DNA of 64,000 nucleotides from a virus (IMGVR_UViG_3300013947_000019:32001-96000); one strand, 5' to 3'; shown: positions 11,058 through 62,128, counted from the stretch's first letter. Notes: generated by a model not told the origin, from the letters alone. Numbers and translations: made by a program.

Positions 11058-11516
11058 TTGATTCCTATGGCTAAGAAAAATAAAGAGATCGATATGGCAC
11101 AAGAACTTCTTGCTAAGAAGAAGAGACAACTACGTAATGAACGTATCAGAGAAAGTCTTGCTGCTAATTTAATGAGTACAACTAAACAGCTTGTTTGGTT
11201 ATTTTCTATTAATGGTATTTTATGGATCTGGTGCTCTTATGTACTAGCATTTATGGATAAAGTACAGATTGCTGAGAGCCTCTCTAGTAATGTATGTACA
11301 GTTGTTCTTGGTCAGCTTGGTATGTACCTAATCACCAAGACTGTGGAGAACGTCTTCCGTTATAATAATTTCGGAGGTACATCTTTATATACTGCCGACA
11401 ATCAAAATGTCGAAGTAAATAATACTTTTACAGAAAGTGAGGAAATGAATAATGGAACAGAAGCAGACCAATACTGTAGTGGAGGAGACCAAGTCGACCC
11501 AGGCTCCTTGGTATAA
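11058..11516 (+). CDS. Holin-like membrane protein
   Basis: Two hydrophobic segments (LVWLFSINGILWIWCSYVLAF; VCTVVLGQLGMYLI); ATG 11067 is the likely start; overlaps the next gene. Confidence 0.5.
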   Translation: MIPMAKKNKEIDMAQELLAKKKRQLRNERIRESLAANLMSTTKQLVWLFSINGILWIWCSYVLAFMDKVQIAESLSSNVCTVVLGQLGMYLITKTVENVFRYNNFGGTSLYTADNQNVEVNNTFTESEEMNNGTEADQYCSGGDQVDPGSLV

Positions 11517-11814
11517 GAAGTTTACCTCCCGTAAGTTCATCATGGCCCTGATCGGTGTAATTACTGGTATCTGTGGTATGATCGGTTTCAGTGACAATAC
11601 GACTGCAGTGATCGCTTTCATTGCTATCGAGATTTTATCCCTGGCCGGTTATATCATTGCTGAGGGTGTCGTTGATGCTAAGGCTGTGAAGACAGGTGCT
11701 ACGATTCTGCAGGAGATTGCAGACATCATTGCTGCACTGATGGATCATAAGGAACCAACTGTTGATCCTGATGGTGGTACTCATGATGATACGATGAAAG
11801 ATTTGGATGAATAA
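11452..11814 (+). CDS. Phage holin
   Basis: KKFTSRKF followed by two TM segments and YIIAEGVVDA, the pattern of Firmicutes phage holins. Confidence 0.7.
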   Translation: MEQKQTNTVVEETKSTQAPWYKKFTSRKFIMALIGVITGICGMIGFSDNTTAVIAFIAIEILSLAGYIIAEGVVDAKAVKTGATILQEIADIIAALMDHKEPTVDPDGGTHDDTMKDLDE

Positions 11815-11817
11815 AGA

Positions 11818-11841
11818 TGGGAGGGCAAATTTGCCCTCCCA
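11818..11841. terminator. Bidirectional terminator hairpin between convergent genes
   Basis: TGGGAGGGCAA-AT-TTGCCCTCCCA. Confidence 0.75.
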
Positions 11842-11845
11842 ATTC

Positions 11846-12526
11846 TTATTTCTCATAATGAATCTTATACCCAGATTCTGGAACCATGCACTTAGCTTCA
11901 TAATAAATTTCATTCGTGGTACAATCTTCATTATATGTAAGTGTTAGTGCTAATCCACCAGACATGATATTCTTAGCAATCTTATCAACAAGACCAAGTC
12001 GCATCAGATAATTCAGACAATATGAATATTTCTGATCAATACCAGGTAACGTTTTCATCTTAGCTGTAGCTTCATCATCCATCGTTGTTCTACCACAAAC
12101 AACAATAAAATTTAATGGATTATTGTGTGTTTCTTGCATAGTTTCACAGGAGACGGATGACGACCCGGGGAAGCACATATTTCGAGCAAATGAGAACATA
12201 TGGTCATCATGAAGTGCCCTCCTAAGGCCTTTCTGAACCTCTTTATAGTACTCTTCACTCTTTTGCATCTCAACATGAATCTTATCATGCTCTGCTTGCA
12301 GTCGATCATTTTCTGATTTCAATTCTTCCATTGTAACCAGATTCATAGCATTAATTCGACCTCTACAAATATTCAACTCTTCAGTTAATTGATCCGTGCA
12401 GGTTTGCAATTTCTTGATTTTATCGTCATAATCTGTAATGCGCGCAAAATGTTCATCTGCATCAATCACAACAAATCCATGACGCTCTAAGAATTTTCTG
12501 AACCACTTAATTAATAGTTTAATCAT
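11846..12526 (-). CDS. Hypothetical coiled-coil protein
   Basis: 226 aa with SD GGGAG; heptad-rich N-terminal half. Confidence 0.65.
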   Translation of the reverse strand: MIKLLIKWFRKFLERHGFVVIDADEHFARITDYDDKIKKLQTCTDQLTEELNICRGRINAMNLVTMEELKSENDRLQAEHDKIHVEMQKSEEYYKEVQKGLRRALHDDHMFSFARNMCFPGSSSVSCETMQETHNNPLNFIVVCGRTTMDDEATAKMKTLPGIDQKYSYCLNYLMRLGLVDKIAKNIMSGGLALTLTYNEDCTTNEIYYEAKCMVPESGYKIHYEK

Positions 12527-12561
12527 ATAAATTACTCCCTTCTTTATTTTTATAGTACGAT

Positions 12562-13091
12562 TGCTCCAGGTCGCCCTGGAGCATAACTTAACCTATGATT
12601 AACGAGTGAAGTAGCAAAAGACAGAGGTGTATGTCATGGTACCTTATGCAGTGAAAGGAGATATCTACAATGAGCGATGTAGATTTATCATTGGAGGTCG
12701 GTTAAGTTTTGGTATCGTACTGAGGCAAGCCTCACCGGAGATAGAGATGAAAAATTATTCGCACATCCATTCCAGGTATTCCCTGATTTGGATGATATAA
12801 AAATGGATATTATCTGAAGAACCATCACTTCAGTAATACCCTTGGATGAGGTGTCCAATGATGATAAATATCAGATACTTGGCAGTTATAGATATAAGAG
12901 TTATGGGAAGTGGTGGAGTCTCTTATACCTGAGGTGGAATATCTGATATCATAAGTAATCCAGTATCCTTGTTAGTACTCAACAGATGGTTAGGATCAAC
13001 CGATTACTGGGAAGGAGGACTTAATATAGGTGAAATCAAATGTACTTTGTGGAGGTATACAACATGATTCGGTGGTGAATACCAAGCCCTC
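12562..13091 (-). ncRNA. Candidate ~530-nt structured non-coding RNA carrying an array of SD/start-codon units (strand uncertain)
   Basis: No ORF of 60 aa or more in about 650 bp; minus-strand late promoter AACAATTTTATG at 13091-13102; bounding hairpin at 12562-12583; many internal stems; 22-nt identity to the RBS/start of 35509..36141. Confidence 0.5.
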
Positions 13092-13139
13092 ATAAAATTG
13101 TTAGTATATGTATAAAAATAAAATAATGAGAAAGAATTT

Positions 13140-13168
13140 GCCCGGGAGAGTAGTATCATCTCCCGGGC
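13140..13168. terminator. Terminator hairpin downstream of nrdG
   Basis: GCCCGGGAGA-GTAGTATCA-TCTCCCGGGC. Confidence 0.75.
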
Positions 13169-13174
13169 TTATCT

Positions 13175-13702
13175 TTATGGTAACTTGTACAGAGTTGGAT
13201 ATCCACTTTCTCGAGTCTTCTGCAGATCAATGATACGTTGATTACTGCTACCTCTAAAACGAAGGGATATATCTTTTAACTCTTCTACAAAACGACCATC
13301 TACCAATACATCAAATGGTTTAAGCATTTCATCCATTCTTGAATTATATGCACGACAAGTCGGGTTATGAAGTTCCTCATAAGTAAATCCAGTATATAAC
13401 CAGAAATTTTTATCAGGGTGATTTGCCTTCAAAAACTTAACCAATTCACATACATACATTTGATTCTCTGGTTCCATTGGTTCACCACCAAGAATTGTTA
13501 CACCATCAATATATGATCGATCTAATGCTGCACTGAGATCATATGCAAGTTCTGTTGTTACAGGTTTACCATAATTGAAATCCCATGTACACTCATTGAA
13601 ACAATTCTTACAATGATTCCGACAACCAGATACAAAAAGAGAAATACGGACACCTAAACCATTTGCAATATCACAGTCTTTTATTGCACTATAATGTACC
13701 AT
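13175..13702 (-). CDS. nrdG: Anaerobic ribonucleotide reductase activating protein (radical SAM)
   Basis: DIANGLGVRISLFVSGCRNHCKNCFN (CxxxCxxC), LGGEP, LVDGRF...FRGSSNQR; lies downstream of nrdD. Confidence 0.97.
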   Translation of the reverse strand: MVHYSAIKDCDIANGLGVRISLFVSGCRNHCKNCFNECTWDFNYGKPVTTELAYDLSAALDRSYIDGVTILGGEPMEPENQMYVCELVKFLKANHPDKNFWLYTGFTYEELHNPTCRAYNSRMDEMLKPFDVLVDGRFVEELKDISLRFRGSSNQRIIDLQKTRESGYPTLYKLP

Positions 13703-13717
13703 TAAAAGACCTCCTAA

Positions 13718-13786
13718 TTACAGATGGAGAACTCGATCACGGATCTCTTCTGTTCTTCCCTGATTCCAGTACTGTGTGCCAATGTA
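13718..13786 (-). CDS. nrdD: nrdD exon 2 (YIGTQYWNQGRTEEIRDRVLHL*)
   Basis: Canonical NrdD C-terminus; joins in frame to exon 1 ending ...RRTCG and restores the RTCGY glycyl-radical motif. Confidence 0.92.
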   Translation of the reverse strand, partial: YIGTQYWNQGRTEEIRDRVLHL

Positions 13787-13872
13787 CTTGAACTACCCAT
13801 AGTAACAACCATCCTATGGGAATAGACTATCCCTTGCAAGGGTCCATTATAATTGGTTCCTCATGCCGATAT

Positions 13873-14580
13873 TTATAGTCGTTGCACCTTCTCTTCAACA
13901 TACTTTTCAATTTCTTTAGCTCGATTTTTTGGAATTTTTGGTTTTTCTTTTGGATACCTATATTCTTTGAAGAGAATTTCTTCCGCATACCATCTTGCAT
14001 AATATGCTTCTTCTTCATGTTCATAAGTTCCTAAATGTACCGATTTTCCATGAAGTTTGATTCGCGCAGCCCATTTACCATTATGATCATCAACACCACG
14101 ATAATTACTATTCATCTGGTTTTGAGATTTAGTAATGATGCGCAAATTACATCTTCTATTATCAAGCTTATTGTGATTAATATGATCAACAAATTGATCA
14201 GTACCTAGAATAACTCTATGCATAAATAAAGTAAGCTCATTAGTTCCTTTTATTTTATTCTTTGAATTCTTACTATTATTTATAGCATATCCAGAAGCAC
14301 TCTTTCTCCACTTAGTATATCGAACTTTATTGTAATCTTTGATATCAACCATTGCTTGGTCTACAAATTCACCATTTTTATCAAATAGATCGATATACAC
14401 TACATCATTTTTTATATGTGCAGTATTCGGAGTATACATAGTTCTAGGATTAGTATCAATCGGATGACCATATTTTTTAATTTGTTTATAATGCTTATTG
14501 CAAAGAGTTTGTCCAAAATATGCAATTTTACGATATAGCATTTTTCCACAAACATCACATTGAAAATGATATTCTTTCAT
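13873..14580 (-). CDS. Intron-encoded HNH homing endonuclease with AP2-like C-terminal domain
   Basis: MHRVI...VDHINHNKLDNRRCNLR (HNH_3 type); YRGV...KWAARIK...HLGTY..EEEA (AP2); N-terminal CDVC/CNKH zinc motif. Confidence 0.93.
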   Translation of the reverse strand: MKEYHFQCDVCGKMLYRKIAYFGQTLCNKHYKQIKKYGHPIDTNPRTMYTPNTAHIKNDVVYIDLFDKNGEFVDQAMVDIKDYNKVRYTKWRKSASGYAINNSKNSKNKIKGTNELTLFMHRVILGTDQFVDHINHNKLDNRRCNLRIITKSQNQMNSNYRGVDDHNGKWAARIKLHGKSVHLGTYEHEEEAYYARWYAEEILFKEYRYPKEKPKIPKNRAKEIEKYVEEKVQRL

Positions 14581-14614
14581 ATATACTACACCTCCTTTCT
14601 ATCTTGTTTGAGAT

Positions 14615-14627
14615 ATAGTATATATTT
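14615..14627 (-). promoter_or_regulatory. Early-type promoter inside the nrdD intron
   Basis: AAATATATACTAT on the minus strand, about 35 nt upstream of the HNH start. Confidence 0.6.
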
Positions 14628-14744
14628 AAAATAAATTTATGTTAAAGAGCATGGCTCAGGATTACCCTTTTAGTTTAGTTTATAGGTTCGGGCTTCCCCT
14701 GAATTTCTATCGATTTATAATGCGGCTAAATATAGCACACCTTC

Positions 14745-16847
14745 ACCGCATGTGCGCCTGCAGATGTTCATCGTAGATTGATTTGTATTACCACACTTAG
14801 GACATTTCCAGATTAATTTACCATTCTCATTTGTTACAATATCGATTTCTCCATCCCAGCCACATTCCTGACAATAATCAGATTTAGTGTTGAGTTCAGC
14901 ATACATGATATTATCATAAATAAATTTCATCACATTAAGTACTGCAGGAATATTACCCTTCATATCAGGAACTTCCACATAGCTAATAGCACCACCAGGA
15001 GAGAGCTTCTGAAACTCAGCTTCTTTGGCAAGTTTAGTAAAAGCATCAACTTTTTCATATACCGCGAAATGGTACGAGTTAGTTATGAAATTATGATCAG
15101 TTACACCAGGAATAATACCAAAACGCTCTTTCAAACACTTAGCAAACTTATATGTAGTAGATTCCATAGGAGTTCCATATAAAGAATAAGAGATATTCTC
15201 TGCTGCTCTCCATTCAGCACACTTATCATTCATGTGCTGCATAATCTTAAGAGCAAATTCTTTATTCTCAGGATCCATATGAGACTTACCAGTCATTGCT
15301 ACTACACATTCATGCAGACCAGCATATCCAAGAGAAATAGTAGAATAGTTATTATACAATAACTTATCAATGGTTTCACCTTTCTTCAAACGTGCAAGTG
15401 CACCATATTGCCAAAGGATAGGAGCTACATCAGAAGTTGTACCTTTAAGTCTATTATGTCTGATCTGAAGAGCTCTATGACAAAGTTCAAGTCGTTCATC
15501 AAAAATCTTCCAAAACTCGTCAAAATCTTTATGTGCAGAGAGACCAATATCAACCAGATTAATGGTCACAACTCCCTGATTAAAACGAGAATAGTATTTA
15601 TGTTCACCATTAGGACCAAGACCTTCAGTATCGGGAGTTAAGAAAGAACGACAACCCATACATGGATAAACATCACCATTCTTAAGCTCTCTCATCTTCT
15701 TTGCAGAAATATAATCAGGCACCATCCTTTTAGCAGTACATTCGGCAGCAAGTTTGGTAAGATACCAATAAGGGGAATCCTCATGAATATTGTCTTCATC
15801 AAGAACATAGATTAGCTTCGGGAAAGAAGGAGTAACCCATGCACCAACTTCATTCTTAACTCCCTGAATTCTTTGCTTTAAAGTCTCTTCAATAATCATT
15901 GCAAGATCATGTTTAGTTTGTTGATCTTCTACTTCTCCAAGATACATAAAAGATGTAACAAATGGGGTTTGTCCATTAGTTGTCAACAATGTTAAAATTT
16001 GATACTGAATCATCTGAACACCACGAGTAACTTCCTCATGAAGTCTAGATTCAGTAATCTTATCAATCAGGTAAGTATCATTTGCACTATGCGTATCTTT
16101 CAGCTCCTCGATAACCTTCTTGCGAATCTTCTGACGAGAAATATCAACAAAAGGTGCAAGATGACTCAAAGAGAAGGTTTGGCCGCCATATTGATTAGAA
16201 GCAACCTGTGCAATGATTTGAGTGGTAATATTACATGCAGTAGAGAAAGAATGTGGCTTCTCGATCATAGTACCAGAAATAACGGTACCATTCTGAAGCA
16301 TATCTTCTAGATCAATCAAATCACAATTATGCATTCTCTGTGCTACATAATCTTGATCATGCAACCAAATGATTCCAGCCTCATGTGCTTCTACTAAATC
16401 ATGCGGATATAAATATCGTTTACATATATCTCTAGAAATCTCACCAGCCATATAATCACGCTGGGTAGAATTGATTACAGGGTTCTTATTAGAATTCTCC
16501 TGCTTAGCCTCTTCGTTTGTCTGATCAATGATAGAAAGGATCTTATCATCAGTTGTATTCTTCTGACGGATCTTGCTTCTCTCATAACGATAGGTTATAT
16601 AATTCTTAGCAATCTGGTAGAAACCAAGTTTCATGATTGCTAATTCAACCATATCTTGAATATCTTCTACACCAACAGCATGTCCAAGTTTTTCACATTT
16701 AGCTTGAACTGTAGAAGCAATATCTTTGATATAATCATCAGTCATTCTTGCTGTCTGCGGGACAGTTGCATTTGCTTTACCGATCGCAATTTCAATTTTA
16801 GAAATATCAAAGACTGCTTCAGAGCCATTCCTTTTTATGACATTCAT
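14745..16847 (-). CDS. nrdD: Anaerobic (class III) ribonucleoside-triphosphate reductase, exon 1
   Basis: N-terminal ATP cone (VIKRNG...FDISKI), MHNCDL, CMGCRSF, RFNQGVVTINL, CQECG/CPKCG zinc site; ends at RRTCG before the intron. Confidence 0.97.
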
Positions 16848-22187: not shown

Positions 22188-22219
22188 GTGATGTTTCCAC
22201 CACCTTTCTATAAGAGAAT

Positions 22220-22231
22220 TATCACAATGTC
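22220..22231 (-). promoter_or_regulatory. Late promoter
   Basis: GACATTGTGATA on the minus strand. Confidence 0.55.
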
Positions 22232-22239
22232 TTACTTTA

Positions 22240-22484
22240 TACTGTTGTTCCGGGGTGTATCGATTAAAAGATGAGAATCAGGCCTGGGACCAACCCAGAC
22301 CTGATCTCAAAGAAAGGAGTAACCAATGTAAACCATGCCTAACCCGCCAGCAAGTTTACCGCATCTTTGATGTAGTCTACCCCGCAGAAGACTACATCCC
22401 TACTAAAAAAGGAGGTGTAGGAAAAATGAACAAAAGAGGAGCAAGAGTATCGAGCAGGTATCGTTTTAAGCGTAGAACGTACCT
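22240..22484 (-). ncRNA. Candidate late RNA (or long leader) containing anti-SD/anti-AUG segments
   Basis: Late promoter AACAATATTATA at 22484-22495 (-); the + strand carries two SD-ATG units, one 20/23 identical to the RBS/start of the nrdD-intron HNH gene. Confidence 0.4.
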
Positions 22485-35387: not shown

Positions 35388-35415
35388 ATAAGCTTCCGAT
35401 TTTGGCTCATCTTTC

Positions 35416-35428
35416 AAATATATATTAT
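35416..35428 (+). promoter_or_regulatory. Early promoter
   Basis: Exact AAATATATATTAT, followed by a leader hairpin (GAGTTAG...CTAACTC). Confidence 0.7.
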
Positions 35429-35508
35429 ATAAGTGATAGAGAGTTAGATGATATGCTGAGATCATAACTAACTCACAAATAATTTAAATTCAAAAGGAGA
35501 TATCTACA

Positions 35509-36141
35509 ATGAGCAGATCTGAGGCAAACAAGAAGAGAGCAAAGGCAATCGATACCAAGTATGAAACTACTGTCAAGGAACCCGAAACTGAAGTGAAGGA
35601 AGAGACCAAGAAGGAAAAGAAACCTTTCTTCAAGTTCAAGAGTACTCCTGCCGAGCGTATGACCAAGTTGGCAACGCTCAATGCACGCACCTATATCTTC
35701 CTGAAGGGTATGGGTATCGTGAACAAGAAGTTGAGCGCCAAGGTCAATGGCGAAGTTCAGCCGAATGGAAAGCCCTGGTTCAATGACAACAAGGTCACTG
35801 AAATCAAGGAAGAAGAGAAGGCCTCTCCGATCCTGAATACGGTTCCTACTACCACTGAGGTGGTCAAGAAGGATACCCAGAAGAAGGATCAGGATGAGAA
35901 GAAAGAAACCAAGAAGACAGAGACTACTCAGCAGGACTCTGTTAAGTCTAAGGAGCAGCCCGCCAAGGAAGAGAAGAAGGATAAGGAACCCAAGGTCGTT
36001 GAGGTGAAGGAAGATGAGATCGATTATCTCGTCGAACCTGAGACCGAGATGGAGAAGGTTCTGAAGCCCAAGAAGAATTACCGCAAGAATGGTAAGAAGG
36101 CCAGAAAGGCCGCAATGGAGGCTGCGAAGAAGTCTGCCTGA
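35509..36141 (+). CDS. Abundant Lys/Glu-rich, probably disordered early protein
   Basis: 210 aa, optimised codons, SD AAAGGAG. Confidence 0.8.
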   Translation: MSRSEANKKRAKAIDTKYETTVKEPETEVKEETKKEKKPFFKFKSTPAERMTKLATLNARTYIFLKGMGIVNKKLSAKVNGEVQPNGKPWFNDNKVTEIKEEEKASPILNTVPTTTEVVKKDTQKKDQDEKKETKKTETTQQDSVKSKEQPAKEEKKDKEPKVVEVKEDEIDYLVEPETEMEKVLKPKKNYRKNGKKARKAAMEAAKKSA

Positions 36142-62115: not shown

Positions 62116-62128
62116 GCAAAATATTTTG

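Follow-up and report, generated by a model that had tools for sequence, protein, structure and literature searches.

A 648-nt non-coding gap in a jumbo-phage genome carries a dense array of Shine-Dalgarno (SD) and start-codon words, one unit of which is a perfect 22-nt copy of the start region of a distant early-promoter gene, while the only conserved phage promoter of the gap, a late one, faces the opposite strand. The reading that we favour, and put forward tentatively from sequence comparison and RNA modelling, is that a structured RNA made late in infection, physically the 565-nt leader of the neighbouring 226-aa gene, pairs with the start region of that early gene (35509). The anatomy of the array, its word statistics, its conservation, the class of its promoter and its complementarity to the early gene were all observed directly in the DNA.

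A non-coding gap dense in Shine-Dalgarno words

The stretch of DNA analysed here (the window, 64,000 nt) comprises bases 32001-96000 of a 259,863-bp IMG/VR jumbo-phage record, and positions are counted from its first letter. The ORF-free gap, 12527-13174, is the second-longest non-coding gap of the 259,863-bp genome, 92% of which is coding, and it is bounded and punctuated by the following features:

11846..12526, minus strand: 226-aa gene (function not assigned), one flank of the gap; its unit ends at a bidirectional terminator, 11818-11841
12562..12585: hairpin H1, a perfect 9-bp GC-rich stem with a 4-nt loop
13141..13168: GC-rich hairpin with a 10-bp stem, T-rich on both sides, ending the nrdG unit
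13175-13702, minus strand: nrdG, the other flank of the gap

In keeping with the sequence-only reading, which had reported no ORF of 60 aa or more in this region, all six frames are closed in 12527-13174, and no frame was rescued by reading through TAA, TAG or TGA singly. A match to a known RNA family, which that reading had proposed to look for, was not found either: a Rfam covariance scan of 11500-14500 (E <= 1; GOLLD, ROOL, group I intron and others) gave no match in 12527-13174. A blastn search with the region found no match among 50,697 phage records, and neither the 226-aa protein nor the 210-aa product of gene 35509 hit a Pfam or PHROGs family above threshold.

The SD-like words that had drawn attention to the array are real and above chance. 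Within 12562-13102, GGAG or GAGG occurs 14 times on the plus strand and three times on the minus strand, compared to 6.0 +/- 2.3 plus-strand words in dinucleotide shuffles of the array (P = 0.002) and a mean of 2.7 in 541-nt windows genome-wide, among which the array ranks in the top 0.27%. SD words followed by an ATG form seven units on the plus strand (2.6 in shuffles, P = 0.02), a number that ties the genome maximum for that strand, and the plus strand of the array shows a skew of G over C. The array matches 34 start regions of the genome at 13 or more of 16 positions, compared to 11.4 +/- 3.8 for its shuffles, so the excess of ribosome-binding-site matches that had been predicted does exist; however, a match at 13-14 of 16 to another start is also the rule for real start regions, and since these match each other equally well, the resemblance is generic beyond the single 22-mer. 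The same applies to the likeness that had been noted to the starts of 62236, RNase H (30910) and the 61459 gene, which is present in the sequence but, 13-14 of 16 being usual, carries no gene-specific information.

Relatives of the region were recovered from human, Hadza and pig gut metagenomes: a 256-kb IMG/VR phage (G001), two metagenome contigs, ten ENA/Logan contigs (those with one common variant of the 226-aa protein) and two further contigs. The gap is kept in every relative recovered, at 620-701 nt, and nine distinct gap sequences of 621-671 nt were aligned. Two other jumbo phages whose nrdG is ~52% identical (G002 and G003) lack both the 226-aa gene and the gap region. Over aligned columns the gap is 81-86% identical to that of close relatives, compared to 63-73% at codon position 3 of both flanking genes; as it evolves more slowly than these third positions, the stretch is under purifying selection. 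In two more distant lineages, L040 and L042, the flanking proteins are 60% and 68% identical and ORF-free gaps of 701 and 690 nt follow nrdG, of which only the two ends align with the window, the interior being unalignable. The plus strand of the L040 gap holds 14 words (6.8 in shuffles, P = 0.02) and eight SD+ATG units (2.2 in shuffles, P < 0.002), and that of L042 holds 15 words (6.5 in shuffles, P = 0.002). Single motifs are gained and lost among close relatives, and anti-SD columns (the complements of these words on the minus strand) are no more conserved than other unpaired columns; it is the density of motifs, and not each copy, that is maintained.

The gap also varies in larger pieces. 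DNA contigs of four public runs, from pig and other gut metagenomes, have 12685-12786 replaced by 96-98 diverged letters, and different extra hairpins are inserted at one spot, ~12927, in L004 (at ~4800), L048 and L027. The insert of L004 and L048 repeats 10 nt of the 22-nt module's 5' flank and SD, and L048 combines segments resembling L004 with others resembling L027, a mosaic that points to recombination among lineages.

H1 lies 35 nt upstream of the start of the 226-aa gene, lacks a U-tract on either strand and occurs a single time in the genome; its stem sequence is the same in all relatives, L040 and L042 included, with loops that vary or are inverted. The stem of the hairpin that ends the nrdG unit is likewise kept in all close relatives, its loop being inverted in one, and by its placement this hairpin would shield the late promoter from transcription arriving upstream. 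In some relatives (L027 and L004) the loops 12571-12574 of H1 and 13151-13159 of the nrdG terminator are exactly inverted over unchanged stems, a pattern that reads as a DNA-level signature of template switching or recombination. On the far side of nrdG (region 13703-14760), an HNH gene, 13873-14580, sits between a long nrdD ORF and nrdG. It is missing in many close relatives (L030 and L031 among them), where a 723-aa nrdD directly adjoins nrdG, and in L040 and L042 nrdD is broken into two or three parts, of which one bears an HNH; this variation looks like a mobile intron or homing-endonuclease polymorphism.

The mini-ORFs of 4-54 codons described by the sequence-only reading are present in the sequence, and they are not conserved among the relatives. 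The ORF that begins at the 22-nt module's ATG has either 10 or 41 codons, depending on whether a T run (12685-12690) counts four or five letters. The ORF from an upstream ATG has 52-54 codons in part of the lineages, 12 in L027 and 18 in other lineages, and indels of mixed length (1, 3 and 4 nt) occur. No conserved frame, start or stop was found among the relatives: the ORFs are absent in L027, and no gene is called in the gaps of L040 and L042. The T4/T5 difference separates even very close relatives, and in several lineages differently placed indels keep the 3' part of the frame, up to its end at 12800, open.

Could the array be a decayed cluster of small plus-strand genes in a hyperplastic spot, functionless, with SD words and mini-ORFs as its fossils? 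The frames are indeed broken, an ORF tail (...WMI, stop at 12800) is common to differently started ORFs in several lineages, and recombination seems to have been frequent, given the variable inserted hairpins and the mosaic variants. Yet the region evolves more slowly than synonymous sites, and its length, ends, fold stability and SD-word density outlast alignability, all of which neutral decay would erase; we thus regard this origin as improbable.

Late promoter, probable transcribed strand and predicted fold

The elements that bear on transcription and folding of the minus strand are:

13091..13102, minus strand: late promoter of the AR9 type, AACA-N6-TG, with a predicted start at 13091
13014..13091, minus strand: 5'-terminal domain running from the predicted +1, a 13-bp helix of 13079-13091 with 13014-26
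12586..13090, minus strand: predicted structured RNA body with anti-SD and anti-start modules, marked by word excess, fold and conservation
12803..12836, minus strand: most conserved hairpin, 14 bp with one bulge, nearly invariant in nine sequences
13051-55, 13014-18, 12931-34, 12915-18, 12848-51, 12737-40, 12693-97, 12657-60 and 12624-27, minus strand: CUCC/CCUC words

In the jumbo phage AR9, 94 late start sites carry the motif AACA-N6-T(A/G), the last base of which is the transcription start (PMC5312081). The earlier assignment of a late promoter to the minus strand at 13102-13091 is borne out, as this site fits the AR9 consensus (PMC5312081) and belongs to a class enriched upstream of genes: in the phage genome AACA-N6-T(A/G) is concentrated 30-70 nt before start codons when the sense strand is scanned, and the antisense control is flat. 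The local late consensus is AACA-N4-TATA-AT, present in about 40 copies in the genome, and an early-like class consists of an AT-rich block of ~24 nt ending in AAGTGA, in 13-17 copies (e.g. at 62127, 28775, 33460 and 35413). With a PWM score of 5.7 the site at 13102-13091 lies in the top 0.1% of the genome and is a modest match beside the training median of 12.5. It takes the TG form (TATG instead of TATA) in the clade of the window and the TA form in L040 and L042, in which it is conserved where the gap interior fails to align. A shared extended motif around 13088-13103 at other sites of the window was not convincing. RNA_pol_Rpb2_6 domains, found in multisubunit RNA polymerases, occur in the relatives' orthologous neighbours, by which the phage itself would encode such a polymerase. 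PWM scoring of the plus strand of the gap gave no early or late phage promoter; a sigma-70-like TATAGT stands there just before H1.

The 226-aa gene lacks its own promoter of either the early or the late class, its only upstream AACA-N6-T[AG] site being at -576, and no conserved intrinsic terminator was found between the array and the gene. Because no terminator separates the two, the predicted RNA is probably the late leader of the 226-aa gene, which would be expressed from the promoter at 13102 through 565 nt of leader. Elsewhere in the window, 22188-22484 is a late-promoter-driven leader upstream of a 731-aa gene; it has a few C-rich tracts, with a weak excess of anti-SD words (five compared to 2.3 expected, P = 0.09).

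Since the only conserved phage promoter faces the minus strand, the SD words are read here as CCUCC-type anti-SD words. Folding points the same way, the reverse of what had been suggested from internal stems, namely a better fold on the plus strand. Single-sequence folds in five lineages gave z = -3.4 to -5.6 on the minus strand and z = -0.8 to -3.3 on the plus strand; for the consensus of nine sequences the energy was -121.6 kcal/mol on the minus strand (z = -10.3) and -113.8 on the plus strand (z = -6.0). The minus consensus has 144 pairs, its paired columns being 82% invariant compared to 54% of unpaired ones, with double compensatory changes at three pairs and loops that change over fixed stems, for example at 12722-12736. 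Of the predicted pairs, 71 (half) would be Watson-Crick on either strand, and G.U-preserving transitions in helices common to both strands number 3 versus 5, a split that does not tell the strands apart; the strand call rests on promoter and thermodynamics, not on covariation.

The predicted 13-bp terminal helix encloses a hairpin that presents CCUCC (13051-13055) in its loop, and it uses three G.U pairs, which would be A.C on the plus strand; one-sided changes in it stay paired. Throughout the minus strand, anti-SD words are predicted to be unpaired at 0.5-0.74, compared to 0.40 elsewhere, in five of six lineages, and in the window's RNA nine of 12 anti-SD sites are predicted to be 76-100% unpaired. 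On the plus strand, SD words are more paired than average, again in five of six lineages (unpaired 0.23-0.36 versus ~0.38). With a conserved late promoter, no phage promoter on the plus strand and the better fold on the minus strand, a late minus-strand transcript, as first proposed, seems the best reading of the sequence and its models.

The sequence-only reading had offered another option, in which the plus strand is transcribed and its SD/AUG sites are real, acting as a decoy for 30S subunits or for a CsrA- or RegA-like repressor; a messenger for micro-peptides would be a variant of it. We consider a plus-strand RNA very improbable, and the decoy or CsrA-sponge version is disfavoured by SD words that are more paired than average and by the lack of an early or late phage promoter on that strand. 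In addition, the plus strand folds no better than its shuffles in most lineages (z = -0.4 to -1.5), and its ORFs are toggled by the T4/T5 run and indels, absent from L027 and without a called gene in L040 and L042. What speaks for it is the correct spacing of SD and ATG, the excess of G over C, typical of sense strands, the TATAGT just before H1 and, in some relatives, a 41-aa ORF from the module ATG or one of 52-54 aa from the upstream ATG.

Less credible again, and given very little weight here, is an element acting at the level of DNA: a hairpin-rich site with a part in replication, packaging or recombination, for example, or a palindrome (H1) to which a dimeric protein binds as its operator. 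The half of the predicted pairs that are Watson-Crick on both strands, the conservation of H1 in sequence, beyond pairing alone, and the hairpin loops flipped in relatives, a DNA-level event, would all suit such an element, which nonetheless leaves the strand asymmetry of the SD words, the 22-mer and the conserved late promoter unexplained; moreover, H1 occurs only once in the genome.

The 22-nt module and the start of gene 35509

The module and its counterpart are:

12654..12675, minus strand: 22-nt module, perfect complement of the start region of gene 35509
35493..35514, plus strand: candidate target site, comprising SD, spacer, AUG and second codon of gene 35509-36141

The identity of 12654-12675 with 35493-35514, which the sequence-only reading had singled out, is exact, and the 22-mer is found in two copies, in the window (0.01 expected) as in the whole genome. 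That the minus-strand RNA complements the start of an early-promoter gene is likewise upheld, over 22 of 22 nt: among 277 start regions, that of gene 35509 is the top outlier, forming the best duplex with the RNA at -38 kcal/mol (z = -4.6; next, -31). Gene 35509-36141 has an early-class promoter at 35413-35436 and no late promoter, and encodes a 210-aa Lys/Glu-rich protein. In the predicted fold of the RNA, the module's anti-AUG lies in the loop of a 7-bp hairpin (12665-71 with 12678-84), and its anti-SD is single-stranded. The 210-aa protein evolves fast: gut metagenomes contain some 100 variants of its sequence, 76-87% identical, and a sister lineage has shorter forms of 143-147 aa; a long spurious ORF lies opposite its gene.

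The module belongs to a block of ~50 nt that is invariant in nine relatives save for one hot spot, which falls in the hairpin loop of the module and in the SD-AUG spacer of the gene. At the hot spot the two loci read:

Window: module CAATG, gene start CAATG
G001: module CTATG, gene start CTATG
Contig SRR25448224_1132 (both loci on one contig): module CTTATG, gene start AACATG

The co-variation of module and target that the sequence-only reading had called for is thus seen in part: the two are concordant in the window and in G001, and mismatched in SRR25448224_1132, where identical blocks of 14 and 6 nt flank a mismatch of 2-3 nt. Because the hot spot lies in a loop and a spacer, the concordance in two genomes could be due to chance or gene conversion, and it is suggestive at most. 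Co-variation is absent in L040, whose gap contains no module matching the start region of its own homologue; L042 keeps a shortened version of the module. No copy of the start regions of distant homologues of the 210-aa gene (L043 and L046) was found in the L040 or L042 gaps, and exact-pattern scans of IMG/VR led from the L042 version of the module to one unrelated phage gene and from the L040 version to nothing. Two further gene starts resemble the module and are possible secondary targets by sequence: G001:C1:52295-52313 (L024), which has the module's 14 SD-side bases and the ATG region, and 110902-111444 of the phage genome (G000, outside the window), an imperfect match that includes post-ATG bases otherwise present only in the intergenic copy.

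The claim that the RNA addresses many targets found no support. The other units resemble gene starts only generically, early genes are matched no better than late ones, and start regions as a class differ little from internal coding controls (-20.7 versus -19.7 kcal/mol by RNAduplex, which with a 500-nt partner allows very large loops, making class-level energies crude). A master RNA akin to RNAIII, that is, a late transcript of ~530 nt whose dozen anti-SD/anti-AUG loops silence early phage (or host) mRNAs as a class, is rather improbable in our view. Under it, the array would act as an early-to-late translational switch in which the 22-nt module is only the most specific of many arms, and the gain and loss of motifs would let the array stay in step with the ribosome-binding sites of the phage.

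For the late leader that pairs with gene 35509, we infer transcription, RNA ends and pairing in vivo as follows. The phage's non-virion RNA polymerase would start at 13091 on the minus strand late in infection, producing an RNA that begins with the 13-bp terminal helix, runs for ~530 nt to the invariant H1 and continues past it into the 226-aa gene, either as a 565-nt leader or with a stable RNA processed from it. In this transcript the plus-strand SD/start units would become anti-SD (CCUCC-type) and anti-AUG (CAU) modules, mostly in loops or single-stranded linkers. The 22-nt module would pair with the region from SD to second codon of gene 35509, blocking 30S binding, and the early protein of gene 35509 would be switched off late in infection. 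The other modules might contribute a weak and unspecific affinity for SD sequences, or might serve the leader's own gene.

The strongest competitor, unlikely though deserving of serious weight, is a leader that works in cis only: the 565 nt would be a structured 5' UTR of the 226-aa gene's late mRNA, its C-rich motifs would fold onto the gene's own SD or set mRNA stability or translation, and the 22-mer would be a historical duplication. It accords with the lack of a U-tract at H1 and of any promoter separating the array from the 226-aa gene, as it does with the 5' UTRs of AR9 late mRNAs, which reach 491 nt (PMC5312081), and with selection that falls mainly on helices. In the fold of the full leader, the gene's SD (12536-12540) is predicted with high probability to pair with C-rich 13009-13013; however, the sequence of this predicted partner is not conserved among relatives. 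One anti-SD would also be enough for such a leader, whereas 12-15 are maintained in lineages with unalignable interiors, and the 22-nt module, placed in one of the most conserved blocks, perfectly matches a distant gene start in two lineages.

Comparison with known regulatory RNAs

Temporal control in jumbo phages is, to our knowledge, explained almost entirely by two RNA polymerases, and we know of nothing on how early proteins are switched off despite stable mRNAs. A late RNA that covers ribosome-binding sites, if true, would add a post-transcriptional layer to this control and would make the phage the first virus with a long anti-SD RNA of several modules. The case also lends itself to direct testing, since a single promoter, a single RNA and a single 22-nt target, of which natural variants exist, are involved.

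In its making, the array RNA is closest to the late units and late antisense RNAs of AR9, a Bacillus jumbo phage with two phage RNA polymerases, long 5' UTRs and late promoters that drive non-coding and antisense transcripts (PMC5312081). The promoter grammar and the early/late logic are the same, but the AR9 antisense RNAs overlap opposed genes and so act in cis, whereas the array faces no gene on the other strand and has its candidate target in trans, at a distance of 22 kb. We know of no anti-SD array described for AR9. The c4 antisense RNA of phages P1 and P7, of ~77 nt, is excised by RNase P and targets the transcript from which it comes. Like c4, the array RNA would be a phage RNA co-transcribed with downstream genes that pairs with a ribosome-binding region and blocks translation; unlike c4, it would be ~530 nt long, carry a dozen modules and act on a distant target. 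CsrB/RsmZ sponges resemble the plus-strand reading in having many GGA words in a non-coding RNA, but theirs sit in hairpin loops of the transcribed strand, whereas here the plus-strand words are predicted to be more paired than average and no phage promoter was found on that strand.

Exposed C-rich generic seeds for SD sequences are known in Gram-positives from the Rsa RNAs with a UCCC motif (PMC2790875) and from 6C (PMC6486639). These RNAs measure 60-200 nt and have 2-4 motifs, compared to 12-15 in ~530 nt here, together with an extended perfect match. Of the features that characterise the class of RNAIII, Rsa and 6C, the array RNA has predicted exposed C-rich motifs and a specific complementarity to a start region, and we found neither several distinct targets nor a discrete transcript with its own 3' end; it falls in no described family.

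In its working, the closest system is RNAIII of Staphylococcus aureus, an RNA of ~0.5 kb with many hairpins, whose conserved C-rich loops pair with SD/start regions and block 30S binding; it acts late in its temporal programme, is terminated and free-standing, has proven targets and encodes delta-haemolysin (PMC2837412). The array RNA differs in being phage-encoded, in its promoter for a phage RNA polymerase, in having no terminator before the next gene and in its one perfect 22-nt match, where those of RNAIII are short and imperfect, and the two are unrelated by sequence or in Rfam. What they share, as predicted for the array RNA, is a size of ~0.5 kb, many hairpins and C-rich loops directed against SD/start regions.
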